Below, in pieces: positions 1 to 5,232 of a DNA stretch of 5,232 nucleotides. Below the pieces are notes generated by a model. That model was not told the origin of the DNA, made no database searches, and worked only from the letters and a program-made list of their open reading frames with translations. Each line of letters opens with the position of its first letter. Position 1 is the first letter of the stretch. The translations under genes were made by a program, and so were the position numbers. The DNA is from a virus (lineage: Duplodnaviria > Heunggongvirae > Uroviricota > Caudoviricetes): the IMG/VR virus record IMGVR_UViG_2690316188_000006, one strand, 5' to 3'.

Positions 1-135
1 TGCCTGGTGCCTCCAGGTGACGTTAACCAGTTAACAATTAACGCCGGATACAGAGAATCCACCCATAACACTGTTTTTGGTTTTAACTGTTCCGCGTGCG
101 CTCAGCCGCATTCACCACATCACAAAATTCACTTT

Positions 136-193
136 AAAAAGGGCGGCAGAGCAGTCACGGAGTAAAACTGATACCGCCAAACGTCACCAGAAA
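136..193 (-). ncRNA. dicF: DicF antisense sRNA of the dicB-type operon, including its 3' intrinsic terminator
   Basis: Reverse complement of 136-193 reads TTTCTGGTGACGTTTGGCGGTATCAGTTTTACTCCGTGACTGCTCTGCCGCCCTTTTT, which matches DicF as I recall it and ends in GC-rich sequence plus a T5 run. It sits downstream of ydfC-like genes on the same strand, as in Qin. Ends are approximate. Confidence 0.7.
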
Positions 194-316
194 ATTGATA
201 ACAGAGGGCGTTGCAGCGGGGTTGTCACTTAAGCGTATGGTCAACCTGACAACCCGGTGTCCTCAACGGGGGAAGGAATAACCCCGCCATACTTACCGCC
301 GCGCCATTTCGCGGAT

Positions 317-1204: not shown

Positions 1205-1394
1205 TGCCACAACCGGAAGCGCACGGTCGACGAAAATTTAACGACAGGCTATCTATGAACCAGCTACCTCGCCGTGCGCTTTCGCGTTATGGTCTGACTT
1301 TTCAGGGAAATATCCTTTCAGTAAACTGTCAGTGCCGGATGCTCACCCGTGTCCGGCGCACGCACTCCACCTCACCCGTGGAGAACTCCTTAAT
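1205..1394. repeat. 190-bp duplicated element, copy R2 (ectopic copy between orf92 and ydfA)
   Basis: 189/190 identical to R1. Left edge abuts the 134-bp ydfA leader identity block at 1204/1205. To the right, similarity to the R1 flank decays gradually over about 15 bp. Confidence 0.85.
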
Positions 1395-1416
1395 CACCAA
1401 CCCTCAGGAGGGTGAA

Positions 1417-1692
1417 ATGTCGACTGAAAATGATGAAATCATTAACTCCCTGATACGCCAGATTAATAATTTTGATAAAGCATTGCAACATGCTGCGGCG
1501 CGTAGTGATATAACTCTTTTAGCAATTTCATTTCTTGCATCTGTTATGGATAAAAATGAAGTCGTACGACAGAGTCTTGTTGATTATATCGACTCGCTTC
1601 AACCCGGCACTTTCAATCATGAGAGCTTCAATCATGAGAAAGAGCATGTTAAGTCTGTAATTAATTCTCTTATTTTGAATCAAAAGAATTAA
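1417..1692 (+). CDS. Hypothetical protein orf92 (92 aa), unknown function
   Basis: ATG at 1417 with AGGAGG 5 nt upstream, stop TAA at 1690-1692. AT-rich relative to neighbours. Predicted helical with no obvious transmembrane segment. The ORF-track entry 1204-1692 is the same frame extended upstream through R2. Confidence 0.55.
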   Translation: MSTENDEIINSLIRQINNFDKALQHAAARSDITLLAISFLASVMDKNEVVRQSLVDYIDSLQPGTFNHESFNHEKEHVKSVINSLILNQKN

Positions 1693-1990
1693 TGCTTTTT
1701 GTTGCAAAGTAATTTTCAAGGGGTTCTATTCGAATCCCTTTCTTTTTCATTAACAAGCCAAACCCCTTATCAATGATGTCCATTAGATCCAGGAAGTATT
1801 TTTCATGTAAATCCTGGTTATCAGAGAGCTGCTTCTCTTCGTACAGCCCGATAAAGGCTCGGCGTACGTTACCGGATATATTGTCGATGGTTTCTTTTTC
1901 TACGGTACTCAGGTCAAGAGTCGCCAGTTGAGAGCGAACCACATTCGATGCCATTTCCTGGAATGGTACTGGTAAATCTTTAAATTCCAT
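1670..1990 (-). CDS. Hypothetical protein orf106 (106 aa; 110 aa if started at ATG 2002), unknown function
   Basis: ATG at 1990 with GAGG 7 nt upstream. The alternative ATG at 2002 overlaps the ydfA-copy-2 stop (TGATG). Stop at 1672-1670. Its 3' end overlaps orf92 by 23 bp (1670-1692), convergently. Confidence 0.6.
   Translation of the reverse strand: MEFKDLPVPFQEMASNVVRSQLATLDLSTVEKETIDNISGNVRRAFIGLYEEKQLSDNQDLHEKYFLDLMDIIDKGFGLLMKKKGIRIEPLENYFATKSINSFDSK
1720..1747 (+). terminator. Putative intrinsic terminator for orf92
   Basis: GGGGTTC / GAATCCC 7-bp stem (one G-U pair) with 5-nt loop, followed by TTTCTTTTT, starting 28 nt after the orf92 stop. Lies inside the orf106 coding region on the other strand. 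Confidence 0.35.
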
Positions 1991-2001
1991 CGTCAACCTC
2001 A

Positions 2002-2154
2002 TCAGTCAGTGTTTCTGGTTAACCAGCGACGCGCGCCAGCTTCAGTTTTAAACGTTTTGCTTCTGGTATATGTCATCGCGGTAAACGTGCCGTCCTGGTT
2101 GGGAAACACGCCGCATACCAGAGATTCGTTGTTGCCAAGCTCGATAGTATCCAT
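2002..2154 (-). CDS. YdfA-like protein, second diverged copy (50 aa from the internal ATG; in-frame ORF extends to 2235, 77 aa)
   Basis: Paralog of the 913-1068 gene. The 5' 134 bp (2157-2290) is identical to 1071-1204, and divergence increases toward the 3' end. Same RBS arrangement as copy 1. Confidence 0.7.
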   Translation of the reverse strand: MDTIELGNNESLVCGVFPNQDGTFTAMTYTRSKTFKTEAGARRWLTRNTD

Positions 2155-2332
2155 GCTGACCTCATTTCCCCTTAACGCCGGGGTAGCGGAACAAAAACCT
2201 GCTGCATAGTTATTAAAGTTGAACCCTGCCGTCATGTTCTTACGCCTCGGGCTGGCTACTTAACCCCTGACCACTGCCTGGTAACTCGAAGTATTGCCCT
2301 GCATTCTGTGGGGTGGGGTGGGTGGCAGGTAT

Positions 2333-2361
2333 ATAATGTACTTTGCGTTCATTGTTGTAAA
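2333..2361 (-). promoter_or_regulatory. Putative leftward early promoter (pL/dicBp analog) with operator-like GTAC inverted repeats
   Basis: On the minus strand: TTTACA (2361-2356), 17-nt spacer, CATTAT (2338-2333). Overlapped by GTACTTT..AAAGTAC inverted repeat (2338-2366) and ATGTAC motifs also found in the cI-cro intergenic region. Position is right for driving the leftward operon. Confidence 0.4.
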
Positions 2362-2451
2362 GTACTTTTAGTACATTCTGTGTGTAAAAAAATGAGATGG
2401 GATAAAGTGAAGCACAAACCCGGAGGAAGGCGCTACCGGATTTATGCTGGT

Positions 2452-2871
2452 TTAAGAGGCTTTTTGTTTTTTCTTTCGTGCTAACTCTTCGTAAATTGCA
2501 TTGTACTTCTGTTTTTTCTCTTCAAGAGTTTTTAAAAGTTCATCTGTCTCACTGTCAGGGAGCTCGTCCAGAAGGTCAATGATGATTTTTTGTCTTGGAT
2601 TTAACTCCTGATAGAAACGTACCTGTCCACTTTCTTCTGTATCCTCTCCCAAAAGATAGGTTGGTGTTGTTCCTATTAGTGTTGCTAATTCCCTTAATTT
2701 CTCCCGGCGAGGAATTGTTTCGCCATTAAACCATTTGCTAACCGCTTTTGGTGTTAATTTCATTCGACGGGCAATTTCTGCCTGCCTTCCATGTTGTTCA
2801 TAACCAGCATTTTCACAGGCTAGCGCAAGCCTACTGGCGAACTCTTTACGCGCTTTATCTTCATGAACCAT
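2452..2871 (-). CDS. Prophage repressor, XRE-family HTH (CI/DicA-like), 139 aa
   Basis: N-terminal HTH_XRE-like segment (QAEIARRMKLTPKAVSKWFNGETIP) and an acidic/helical C-terminal tail reminiscent of DicA. Divergent from the cro-like gene. No SD before ATG 2871 (leaderless-type start). Confidence 0.85.
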   Translation of the reverse strand: MVHEDKARKEFASRLALACENAGYEQHGRQAEIARRMKLTPKAVSKWFNGETIPRREKLRELATLIGTTPTYLLGEDTEESGQVRFYQELNPRQKIIIDLLDELPDSETDELLKTLEEKKQKYNAIYEELARKKKQKAS

Positions 2872-2950
2872 AAGTTCAATGATATTCGCTCTTGAATGTA
2901 CTGTCAGTTCTGTTATAGCATGTACTCAAAGTTCACATTGTGAGGGTGAT
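2872..2950. promoter_or_regulatory. Divergent overlapping promoter/operator region (pRM-like leftward, pR-like rightward)
   Basis: Minus strand: CTGACA (2907-2902), 17 nt, TATCAT (2884-2879), 7 nt, ATG, predicting a leaderless repressor mRNA. Plus strand: TTGAAT (2892-2897), 16 nt, extended -10 TGtTATAGC (2911-2919). ATGTACT repeats at 2896-2902 and 2920-2926; near-palindromes ACTGTCAGT (2900-2908) and CACATTGTG. Confidence 0.5.
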
Positions 2951-3205
2951 ATGAACCAGAAAACACTTGAAGATGTAATCAAAACTGTTCGCGTTGCTGT
3001 TGTGGCCGACGTTTGTGGTGTCAGCCAAAGAGCAATCTATAAATGGATGGATAACGGAAAATTGCCTCGCACAGAATATACCGGCGAAACAAATTACGCT
3101 GAAAAAATCGCTCTTGCATCAAACGGATTATTTTCTGCCGATGCAATTTTAACTATTGGCAGGAATAAAACTACTACGAAAAAGCTGATGGGAGTTGATT
3201 CATGA
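2951..3205 (+). CDS. Cro-like / YdaS-family HTH regulator (84 aa)
   Basis: ATG at 2951 with GAGGGTGAT upstream. HTH-like segment VADVCGVSQRAIYKWMDNGKLP. First rightward gene opposite the repressor. The longer ORF-track start (2879) lacks an RBS and would overlap the operators. Confidence 0.8.
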   Translation: MNQKTLEDVIKTVRVAVVADVCGVSQRAIYKWMDNGKLPRTEYTGETNYAEKIALASNGLFSADAILTIGRNKTTTKKLMGVDS

Positions 3206-3627
3206 AAATCAAGCATGAACACATCCGCATGGCGATGAATGCCTGGGCGCATCCGGACGGCGAAAAAGTACCGGCTGCGAAAATTACCAAAGCATATTTC
3301 GAGCTGGGAATGACGTTCCCGGAACTGTATGACGACAGCCATCCGGAAGCCCTGGCTCGCAATACTCAGAAAATTTTCCGCTGGGTGGAGAAAGACACCC
3401 CTGATGCGGTTAAAAAAATTCAGGCGTTGTTACCAGCTATCGAAAAAGCAATGCCACCTCTGCTGGTGGCCCGAATGCGCAGTCATAGCTCAGCCTATTT
3501 TCGGGAACTAGTGGAGACGCGGGAACGACTGGTGAGAGACGCTGATGATTTTGTCGCAGTGGCGATCGCTGGTTTCAACCAGATGAATCGTGGTGGCCCT
3601 GCAGGAAATATTGTGGCTGTGCATTGA
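3202..3627 (+). CDS. ydaT: YdaT-like protein (141 aa), proposed CII-analog regulator / formerly called a toxin
   Basis: Start MKIKHEHI... resembles Rac YdaT as I recall it. ATG 3202 overlaps the cro-like stop (ATGA, 4-bp overlap). Position is second gene of the rightward operon. Confidence 0.8.
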   Translation: MKIKHEHIRMAMNAWAHPDGEKVPAAKITKAYFELGMTFPELYDDSHPEALARNTQKIFRWVEKDTPDAVKKIQALLPAIEKAMPPLLVARMRSHSSAYFRELVETRERLVRDADDFVAVAIAGFNQMNRGGPAGNIVAVH

Positions 3628-3698
3628 CTCGCAATATTCATACCGGATCACTTCCGGCAATTTGTGAGTAAAAAGATTCGGTATCAAAAGAGGTGAGT

Positions 3699-4769
3699 AT
3701 GGCTAACGCCTGGCTCAGATTATGGCATGACATGCCAAATGACCCTAAGTGGCGAACAATTGCCAGGGTGTCAGGGCAGCCAATTGCAACAGTGATGGCA
3801 GTGTATATCCACCTCCTGGTGAGCGCGTCACGAAATGTCACGCGAGGTCACATTGATGTCACGACAGAAGATTTGGCAAGTGCGCTCGACGTGACAGAAG
3901 AGGTAATTGATTCAATTTTGCAGACGATGCAGGGGCGGGTACTTGATGGTGATTTAATCACTGGATGGGAAAAACGCCAGGTGCTTAAAGAGGACAACGG
4001 CAATATTTCGCAAACCGCAAAATCTCCTGCAGAGCGCAAGAGGGCGCAGCGAGAGAGGGAAAGAAAGCGGGAACAAAATGGCGATTGTCACGGCGCGTCA
4101 CGAAATGTCACGCACATGTCACGACGAGTCACGACAGATAAAGATACAGATAAAGATACAGATCAAGAAGATCAAAACACTATGGTCCATGGCGTAAAAA
4201 ACGCCACGAACCAGGCAGGGGATGTTCAGACCGTCAATCCTGGTCAGCCAGCAGGCACGACACCGGAAGCCGATTCAGCGTATGCGCTGAAAGCCGATTC
4301 GGGCGCTGTGCAGCAGGTGATGACCGCAAGGCCGGAGCAATCACACCAACTGCAGCAGCCCGAAGCCGATTCCGCCATTCAGCGGGAAGCCGATCGGGTA
4401 GTCCCGGAAAACACCGGTCAGTCTGTGGGACGAGTGGATTATCCGGATGTGTTCGAACAGGTCTGGCGGGAGTACCCGTTGCGTGCCGGAGCAAACCCGA
4501 AGAAATCCGCTTTCAGTGCCTGGAAGGCCAGATTACGCGAGGGGGTGCCACCAGAGGCCATGCTGGATGGCGTGAGGCGTTACGCAAGATACTTGGCGGC
4601 TACCGGGAAAGCGGGAACGGAATTTGTTCAGCGAGCGACGACGTTTTTTGGACCGGACCGGAATTTTGAGAACCCCTGGTTTCTCCCGGTAAGCGGCACG
4701 AACAACCAGCGTTGTGTGAATCATATTACTGAACCGGATAACGAAATTCCGCCGGGCTTCAGGGGGTAA
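3699..4769 (+). CDS. Phage replisome organizer / replication initiator (lambda O functional analog), 356 aa
   Basis: N-terminus AWLRLWHDMPNDPKWRTIARV... resembles the phage replisome-organizer N-terminal domain. Basic linker ERKRAQRERERKRE. Internal iteron arrays. AGAGG 5 nt before ATG 3699 (the track's GTG at 3693 is an alternative). Stop TAA at 4767-4769. Confidence 0.85.
   Translation: MANAWLRLWHDMPNDPKWRTIARVSGQPIATVMAVYIHLLVSASRNVTRGHIDVTTEDLASALDVTEEVIDSILQTMQGRVLDGDLITGWEKRQVLKEDNGNISQTAKSPAERKRAQRERERKREQNGDCHGASRNVTHMSRRVTTDKDTDKDTDQEDQNTMVHGVKNATNQAGDVQTVNPGQPAGTTPEADSAYALKADSGAVQQVMTARPEQSHQLQQPEADSAIQREADRVVPENTGQSVGRVDYPDVFEQVWREYPLRAGANPKKSAFSAWKARLREGVPPEAMLDGVRRYARYLAATGKAGTEFVQRATTFFGPDRNFENPWFLPVSGTNNQRCVNHITEPDNEIPPGFRG
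3825..3867. repeat. Iteron-like array 1: four GTCAC(G/A) repeats at 10-11 bp spacing inside the replication gene
   Basis: GTCACG at 3827, 3837, 3858 and GTCACA at 3847. 3823-3843 is a 21-bp exact copy of 4093-4113. Confidence 0.5.
4085..4174. other. Putative origin of replication: iteron array 2 (five GTCACG repeats, 10-11 bp period) followed by an AT-rich tract with a tandem 12-mer and two GATC sites
   Basis: GTCACG at 4087, 4097, 4107, 4118, 4128. Then GATAAAGATACA twice (4137-4160) and GATCAAGAAGATC. Lies in the linker region of the initiator gene, as lambda ori lies within O. Confidence 0.5.
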
Positions 4770-4809
4770 GTGTTAATTTCTGGTCATGAGGTAATTTTCA
4801 GGAGGGCTT

Positions 4810-5232
4810 GTGGCAAAAGTTTTTACACAAGAAGAGCGGGAAAAAATTAAAGGGCTGATCGTGGAATTCGTACGCCTTAACGGACGAGGCACGATTCGGC
4901 AGTTATCGGATGAAATTGGTGTCAGTCATGCGTCTGTCGGTCGTTTATGCATGGAGCTGGCCGCCAGTGGTGATGTTTACAATTCCGGTTACGGAGTATT
5001 CCCGTCTGAGCAGGCGCGCAAGGACTGGCAAAACGCCCGCAAAAAACTCTCAAGGGCAAAGCTGAAGAAACCATCTGTGGTTGATCCGGACCTTATCTGG
5101 CTATTACCAGACGGCGAAATACGCCGCTACGACAGGCGCCTAAACATAATCTGTCGCGAGTGCCGGAAGAGCGAAGCTATGCAGCGTGTACTGGCATTTT
5201 ATCAAGGAAATGTTAGGTATTTTAGACGTTAC
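4810..5232 (+). CDS. Hypothetical protein, 5' partial in window (at least 141 aa, runs off the right edge); possible winged-helix DNA-binding protein
   Basis: GTG at 4810 with AGGAGG 4 nt upstream. Open frame to the window end. Segment TIRQLSDEIGVSHASVGRLCMEL looks HTH-like. Not in the ORF track because it has no stop in the window. Confidence 0.55.
   Translation, partial: MAKVFTQEEREKIKGLIVEFVRLNGRGTIRQLSDEIGVSHASVGRLCMELAASGDVYNSGYGVFPSEQARKDWQNARKKLSRAKLKKPSVVDPDLIWLLPDGEIRRYDRRLNIICRECRKSEAMQRVLAFYQGNVRYFRRY

Follow-up and report, generated by a model that had tools for sequence, protein, structure and literature searches.

Introduction

The small RNA DicF has been known since about 1990, and both its targets and its biogenesis have been characterised. 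In Escherichia coli K-12, its gene (b1574, Rfam family RF00039) resides in the Qin prophage, where a single promoter located upstream of ydfA serves the operon (PMC10448788). The transcripts described from this operon include a 1,146-nt species, inferred to be a ydfABC-dicF RNA that ends at dicF, and a 1,608-nt species, inferred to be a read-through product reaching ydfD, which was seen only when RNase E was inactivated (PMC10448788). Two shorter species represent DicF itself, namely a 190-nt RNA whose 5' end is made by RNase III and a 53-nt RNA whose 5' end is made by RNase E, and DicF encoded by Qin accumulates in stationary phase (PMC10448788). Compensatory mutations demonstrated that the 3' region of the RNA pairs with the ribosome-binding site (RBS) of the mRNA from the cell-division gene ftsZ, with a dependence on Hfq (PMC5069750). 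Compensatory mutants were likewise used to show direct regulation of ftsZ, xylR and pykA (PMC5069750), and the RNA is known to repress xylR, pykA and manX in addition to ftsZ (PMC5069750; introduction of PMC10448788).

A second close relative is found in phage Tritos (OV696610.1, a complete 46-kb genome), where an annotated DicF occupies an operon with the gene order CI - ydfA - ydfB - ydfC - DicF - dicB - ydfD - exonuclease. The same succession, from ydfABC through dicF, dicB and ydfD to the exonuclease gene, is present in closed genomes.

Here we examine a 5,232-bp stretch of DNA (hereafter called the window), which constitutes the entire record CYAR01000066.1 (also retrieved as locus L009) of draft assembly GCA_001283805.1. 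Because the window spans the whole record, its position 1 is a contig end. A preliminary description of this DNA had proposed that a DicF homolog ending in its own terminator is encoded on the minus strand at positions 136 to 193, that ydfC, ydfB and ydfA lie upstream of it in an operon of the dicB type, and that dicB itself starts just left of position 1.

Results and Discussion

The window carries an intact dicF gene

The Rfam covariance model for DicF (RF00039) matches positions 192 to 141 of the minus strand over its full length (model positions 1-52), with a score of 76.7 bits and an E value of 3e-16, compared with a gathering score of 48 bits. The 53 nucleotides extending from position 193 (5' end) to position 141 (3' end) align with the annotated dicF gene of the K-12 MG1655 Qin prophage (b1574) with identity at 53 of 53 positions. 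Immediately downstream is a U-tract (UUUUU, positions 140 to 136) that is identical in K-12 and in the comparison locus L001, and the interval originally assigned to DicF thus corresponds to the 53-nt RNA plus this tract.

The 3' portion of the RNA folds into a stem-loop (positions 178 to 142) with a predicted free energy of -15.9 kcal/mol in the minimum free energy (MFE) structure of a 60-nt segment, and the register of this fold is that of the Rfam consensus structure. This stem-loop, followed by the U-tract, represents both an intrinsic terminator hairpin with an Hfq-type 3' end and the 3' region that pairs with ftsZ, as the preliminary description had anticipated in assigning DicF a terminator of its own. 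This hairpin escaped a simple terminator scan of the window, as the rules of that scanner do not accommodate its bulges and 9-nt loop.

A chance resemblance to DicF is refuted by the E value and by the complete identity over 53 nucleotides, which are embedded in a 540-nt stretch that is ~98-99% identical to Qin, and we regard its probability as negligible. Rather, the minus strand at 141-193 almost certainly carries an intact dicF gene encoding the 53-nt Hfq-dependent sRNA of a Qin-like dicBF operon, an assignment based on sequence comparison that none of the evidence contradicts. The Hfq dependence and the target set of this particular copy would be carried over from the experiments conducted with K-12, and the gene is presumably expressed in the source strain.

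DicF loci are common in E. coli and occur in several arrangements

Of 5,426 complete E. coli genomes, 4,746 (87%) match a 1.2-kb probe derived from this region, with a median of 2 and as many as 10 places per genome. When the DicF core was used to scan contigs from one genome per species, matches were recovered only from Escherichia, Shigella, one Salmonella and three contigs of metagenome-assembled genomes (MAGs). These three contigs carry dicF of the E. coli type and are labelled Veillonella parvula (L024), "Proteobacteria bacterium" (L025) and Collinsella sp. (L026); they most likely reflect binning contamination by Enterobacteriaceae prophage DNA. The Salmonella enterica match (L022, CP191473.1, minus strand at ~3640-3700) is located in a lambdoid early-left region and comprises the DicF 3' hairpin and terminator, with 94% identity over 47 nt. 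The 5' region in front of this hairpin is entirely different, dicB is missing downstream, and the locus may represent a seed-swapped relative of DicF.

Three natural arrangements can be distinguished in closed genomes, and all three carry a DicF RNA scoring above the Rfam threshold. Type 1 loci (K-12, L001, L002 and Tritos) have the order repressor - ydfABC - dicF - dicB. Type 2 loci (L006, L010 and L012-L015) have the order repressor - ydfA' - 110-aa gene - dicF - dicB, and type 3 (L003) has the order ydfABC - 106-aa gene - dicF - dicB.

Processing sites are retained in the predicted transcript

RNase E prefers to cleave RNAs at sequences conforming to RN↓WUU (arrow denotes the cleavage site). 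The sequence AAU↓UUUCUGG, with cleavage between positions 194 and 193, presumably fits this preference. Its context in the window (GUUAUCAAU↓UUUCUGG, positions 193 to 200, minus strand) is identical to that in K-12, and the consensus fold predicts that this putative site resides in the loop of a small hairpin.

Further upstream, folding predicts a long imperfect helix of ~21 bp on the minus strand (positions 320-403), with arms formed by positions 403-381 and 342-320, that is a likely substrate for RNase III. Counting back 190 nt from the U-tract leads to positions ~325-330, which would place the 5' end of the longer K-12 species within the 3' arm of this helix; this mapping is derived by arithmetic. 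Eight sequence variants preserve both arms. Among them are divergent copies from E. ruysiae and of the Shigella type, in which the apical region has been replaced and homology to the window starts exactly at the 5' arm. The changes observed within the arms comprise four that are compatible with wobble pairing, one that breaks a pair and none that is doubly compensatory. Covariation was considered as support for the helix and set aside, since the sequences are too alike and offer only wobble-compatible single changes. In the absence of any double compensatory change, the support for the helix consists of its conservation and of the mapping in K-12. An alignment reveals that both processing-site sequences are identical to those of K-12.

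We propose, on the basis of sequence identity with K-12, that the copy at 141-193 is processed in the same manner. Under this model, dicF would lack a promoter of its own and would belong to a polycistronic RNA initiated upstream of ydfA at a PL-like promoter under repressor control. The ~21-bp helix (403-381/342-320), ~135 nt upstream, would be cut by RNase III to give the 190-nt intermediate, from which RNase E would release the 53-nt RNA by cleavage between positions 194 and 193. The 3' end would be fixed by the terminator hairpin and U-tract (178-136), and transcripts that read through this terminator would run on into dicB.

Pairing with ftsZ and the case for a trans-acting RNA

Analysis with RNAduplex predicts that nucleotides 4-53 of DicF pair with positions -29 to +25 of the ftsZ mRNA, covering both the Shine-Dalgarno (SD) sequence and the AUG codon, with an energy of -38.5 kcal/mol. 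When dinucleotide shuffles of DicF were evaluated by the same program with ftsZ positions -80 to +40, 46 of 500 bind as well as the natural RNA, which is weak discrimination, and the duplex energy was consequently dropped as an independent line of evidence. Given that this energy is only marginally better than that of shuffled sequences, we rely on identity with the RNA tested in K-12. The 3' region of the window's DicF is complementary to the ftsZ RBS, and what is decisive is that it is the same RNA that has been evaluated by mutation (PMC5069750).

By extension from those studies, the 3' half of DicF would pair with the ribosome-binding region of the ftsZ mRNA and block its translation, while the 5' part would repress xylR and pykA, with manX repressed as well. 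DicF would thereby add to the filamentation and the metabolic change that follow derepression of the prophage operon.

Alternatively, the element might work chiefly within the operon, as a terminator or attenuator restricting transcription into the toxic dicB gene, in which case the sRNA acting in trans would be a largely inconsequential by-product in the source strain. The hairpin and U-tract do constitute a terminator, the major ydfA-containing transcript of K-12 (1,146 nt) is inferred to end at dicF, the 1,608-nt species is detected only upon inactivation of RNase E, and the Salmonella locus retains the hairpin half alone behind its different 5' region. However, a mere terminator would not require all 53 nucleotides, including the unpaired 5' seed, to be essentially invariant in loci from E. 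coli, Shigella and E. ruysiae, and the regulation of ftsZ, xylR and pykA was established via compensatory mutants (PMC5069750). Moreover, the attenuator and sRNA roles are mutually compatible. We therefore consider it quite unlikely that the element is chiefly an attenuator, and favour its assignment as a presumably functional sRNA gene.

Upstream genes and the expected location of dicB

Three genes precede dicF on the same strand and within the same contiguous piece of DNA. The gene closest to dicF, ydfC (positions 535-753, 72 aa), is annotated as such in relatives, and its product matches K-12 YdfC at 70 of 72 positions (97%). It is preceded by ydfB (783-911, 42 aa), with 41 of 42 positions identical to K-12 YdfB (98%), and by ydfA (913-1068, 51 aa), whose product is 100% identical to K-12 YdfA and belongs to DUF1391 (Pfam PF07151, E value of 1.7e-28). 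Searches of Pfam and NCBIfam assign no family to YdfB or YdfC, nor to the 110-aa and 145-aa open reading frames (ORFs) discussed below. The noncoding DNA from the ydfC stop codon to position 1 is ~98-99% identical to Qin. The leftward operon is of the dicB type, as had been proposed, and its locus type is that of the dicBF early-left operons found in lambdoid prophages.

The dicB gene itself is absent from the 5,232 bp of the window. In K-12 it follows dicF, as it does in phage Tritos and in closed E. coli genomes, and a 62-aa DicB ORF begins exactly 174 nt after the 3' end of DicF in 17 of 17 loci. This set comprises all fetched loci whose DicF is of the E. coli type and whose downstream sequence extends for 500 nt or more. 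Applied to the window coordinates, this spacing places the dicB ATG 35 nt beyond position 1, where the expected sequence is CYGCATCACAAAATTCATTGTTGAGGACGCGATAATG... followed by dicB. We infer that dicB follows at this distance past the contig end, in agreement with the earlier expectation that it starts just left of the window.

The preliminary description also pointed to a GGAGG sequence, on the complement of positions 12-16, as a plausible RBS for dicB. This motif is actually located on the complement of positions 10-14 (CCTCC on the plus strand), and 43 nt separate its 3' end from the dicB ATG of relatives. Furthermore, it is part of a conserved hairpin (CCUGG-AGGCA-CCAGG, positions 17 to 3), and for these two reasons it is not the RBS. 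The SD sequence of dicB in relatives is GAGG, with a spacing of 8 nt to the ATG, and the corresponding place is off the window.

A scaffold join separates dicF from the immunity region

The window differs from the public record CYAR01000066.1 at a single position, 1204, where the record has N and the window has A. This base is a scaffold gap that joins two contigs. The first piece (1-1203) comprises, in the direction of transcription, a leader, ydfA, ydfB, ydfC, a 200-nt element, dicF and the spacer that follows it. The second piece (1205-5232) holds the 200-nt element, an opposite-strand ORF, a 110-aa gene, a second DUF1391 gene (ydfA'), a promoter region, a repressor gene, a cro-like gene, a YdaT-like gene, a replication gene and a DUF977 gene. 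Two direct repeats are present, one between 314-514 and 1202-1402 (98% identical), which corresponds to the 200-nt element containing the predicted RNase III helix, and one between 925-1204 and 2011-2290 (94% identical), which corresponds to the ydfA leader and ydfA. Both repeats abut precisely at the N of position 1204, and both are common to different types of prophage early region; these shared repeat pairs explain the scaffold join.

Could the tandem arrangement nonetheless be real? In that case, one operon would run repressor - ydfA' - 110-aa gene - 200-nt element - ydfA - ydfB - ydfC - 200-nt element - dicF, and each transcript would carry two RNase III helices. The window reads through the junction, the 94% and 98% repeats do exist, and prophage early regions are mosaic, with types 1, 2 and 3 all occurring naturally. 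Against this, the public record gives N as the junction base. A sister scaffold (L008), which stems from another assembly, likewise contains a single N, placed at the same leader boundary, but there the leader start is joined to a different partner, ydfD. In all natural loci, the 200-nt element continues as AA[T/C]CCGCGAAATGG into dicF. A search of 5,426 complete E. coli genomes with an 81-nt probe spanning the junction at its centre gave no contiguous match, and the single match covering at least 80% of the probe consists of two pieces located 428 nt apart. In addition, the piece ends at positions 1 and 1205 each stop 2 nt before a position that differs (T/C) between prophage copies. We judge a genuine tandem operon to be very improbable. 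Given the N at 1204 and the failure to find the junction intact in any complete genome, the tandem of two ydfA modules is a scaffolding artefact, and the layout is unfit for biological interpretation.

Phage Tritos, which has a type 1 operon, lacks the 1,086-bp block of the window that contains ydfA', the 110-aa gene and the second 200-nt element, and the presence of this extra block in the window is explained by the scaffold join. Its DicF also differs at the 3' end, reading ...GCCGCCG compared with ...GCCGCCC in the window. Type 2 loci (for example L014 from GCA_002174725.1, L006 and L010) have the order ydfA' (DUF1391) - 110-aa gene - opposite-strand 145-aa ORF - 200-nt element - DicF - dicB. 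These loci match the second piece of the window (1205-5232) as far as that piece extends, and L014 has the same repressor type. Whereas their 200-nt element runs straight to dicF and dicB, that of the window is cut at 1205 and joined to the ydfA leader.

The opposite-strand ORF of the second piece (1255-1692, plus strand, 145 aa; 1204-1692 when taken as the longest ORF) is annotated as "hypothetical" in many genomes and overlaps the 110-aa gene at the 3' end of the latter. The first ~49 codons of the ORF (1255-1402) are antisense to the 200-nt element that carries the RNase III helix. Since the other copy of the element (316-531) is also open in this frame, the N-terminal part may have arisen as an extension by chance.

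The location of the piece ends at variants between copies has the appearance of branch points in an assembly graph, which suggests that the source genome contains at least two dicF-dicB loci. The dicF gene at 141-193 may accordingly be a collapse of two or more genomic copies. This bears on another reading of the data, in which the copy has no activity of its own, either as an intact but silent relic in a decayed prophage or as a consensus collapsed from several copies. The piece at 1-1203 has no promoter, many genomes hold 2-10 such loci, and the contig ends coincide with polymorphisms between copies. Yet the sequence, the processing sites and the upstream ORFs are intact and nearly identical to those of K-12 Qin, from which DicF accumulates in stationary phase, and phage Tritos, deposited as a complete genome, has the same repressor and the same operon. 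An inactive copy is thus unlikely in our assessment, and the reading of this DNA as a presumably functional dicF locus is preferred.

The immunity region is not that of Qin

The window shares with K-12 Qin the same 53-nt RNA, flanking sequences with ~98-99% identity, ydfA, ydfB and ydfC, the terminator and the sequences of both processing sites, and the differences between the two are confined to the immunity module, which in the window is linked to the dicF copy only through the scaffold N. The repressor gene (2871 to 2452, 139 aa) encodes a protein that shares 29% identity with DicA over 112 aa and reaches 56.8 bits with the NCBIfam DicA model, for which the cut-off is 101. HTH_3 is the only domain recognised, and no Peptidase_S24 match was detected at an E value of 0.01 or below. 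The protein is identical at 139 of 139 positions to the CI repressor of phage Tritos, which also has the same Cro, YdaT-like and replication genes. As judged from these comparisons, the repressor is a heteroimmune DicA-like protein rather than DicA. The rightward genes also differ, being of the YdaT type in the window and dicC, ydfX and ydfW in Qin.

The interval from the repressor gene to ydfA' contains a sigma-70-like promoter (TTTACA-17-CATTAT, 2361 to 2333). An operator-like repeat (TGTACT-N-AGTWCA) occurs four times, with two copies (2336-2350 and 2358-2377) overlapping this promoter and two (2896-2910 and 2920-2934) situated between the repressor and cro-like genes. This organisation is suggestive of a lambda-like OL/PL and OR layout. 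Control by DicA from a PL-like promoter, as in Qin, does not extend to this region, given that the repressor scores below the DicA cut-off, and because the repressor is not DicA, features of Qin regulation such as the Rem antirepressor are not simply transferable. Owing to the N at 1204, a physical link between the dicF copy and the repressor gene at 2452-2871 is not established, nor is the promoter at 2361 to 2333 established as the one that drives dicF at 141-193.

Further into the second piece, clusters of GTCACG-N4 repeats (GTCACGAAATGTCACGCGAGGTCACATTGATGTCACGAC and related copies) occur on the plus strand at 3827-3865 and 4087-4135, inside a gene for a 356-aa replication protein (3699-4769). 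These look like the iterons of a lambda-type origin within a replisome-organiser gene.

The spacer between dicF and dicB is predicted to form a folded domain

The window includes the first 140 nt (positions 1-140, minus strand) of the 174-nt spacer between dicF and dicB, and this portion is ~99% identical to K-12. Copies of the spacer are found in the window at 1-140 (minus strand) plus ~34 nt past the contig end, in L001 at 6058-6267 and in L004 at 2936-3112. Full-length spacers of relatives are predicted to fold as a closed domain with energies of -62.9 and -68.2 kcal/mol (z = -4.4 and -6.1). The closing helix, as predicted, is formed by AGUGAAUUUUGUGAUGUGGUG (133 to 113) with CAC[U/C]GCAUCACAAAAUUCAUU and spans ~21 bp, and most of its 3' arm, which starts at position 2 of the window, falls past the contig end. 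Weak pairing between the U-tail of DicF and UUGAGGA, in which the dicB SD sequence is contained, lengthens the helix. The closing helix is nearly perfect and measures ~21-28 bp. Positions 1-140 thus contribute the 5' arm (133-113) of this helix together with three internal hairpins, including the one at 17-3 that holds GGAGG.

Substitutions within the closing helix mostly preserve pairing, with a few breaks and no double compensatory change. As for the RNase III helix, covariation was not accepted as support, because the sequences are too similar and provide only single wobble-compatible changes. In this comparison L025 has indels, which render its ungapped alignment meaningless.

The spacer resembles STnc100 (RF02076), a family of prophage sRNAs related to PasD. 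The similarities include the UGGUGAAU block, with two invariant blocks and the overall architecture in common, a UCACC-CCNGG/AGGCA/CCNGG-CACC hairpin in which a G-C pair is replaced by a compensatory U-A pair, and a closing long-range helix. The STnc100 consensus conserves the GGAGG-containing hairpin of the window, including one compensatory pair, and this hairpin lies inside the tightly folded spacer domain. The match of the RF02076 model is 28.5 bits for the window copy, which is truncated at the contig end, and 39.7 bits (E value of 7e-7) for the full-length copy of L001, with both values below the gathering score of 47 bits. Canonical STnc100 copies score 77-155 bits and are located in phage late regions by tRNA genes or stx, whereas the spacer adjoins dicF. 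We therefore rejected the spacer as a member of the STnc100 family. One viral contig (L031, 2265-3380) holds four tandem STnc100 copies (77-132 bits) adjoining phage tRNA genes.

The structure of the spacer is not discussed in the paper describing regulation of the K-12 operon. From structural modelling, we tentatively suggest that the spacer might be a functional RNA domain, distantly related to STnc100 and PasD, that could serve as an RNase III substrate and/or as a translational gate tying read-through of the DicF terminator to expression of toxic DicB.

Conclusions

The DicF encoded by this window is a known RNA in a known operon type and a known kind of prophage, and nothing about it is new. 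As a discovery, its identification counts for little, given that the locus type is common and the RNA is well studied. The folded spacer between dicF and dicB offers a small lead on how expression of dicB may be gated.
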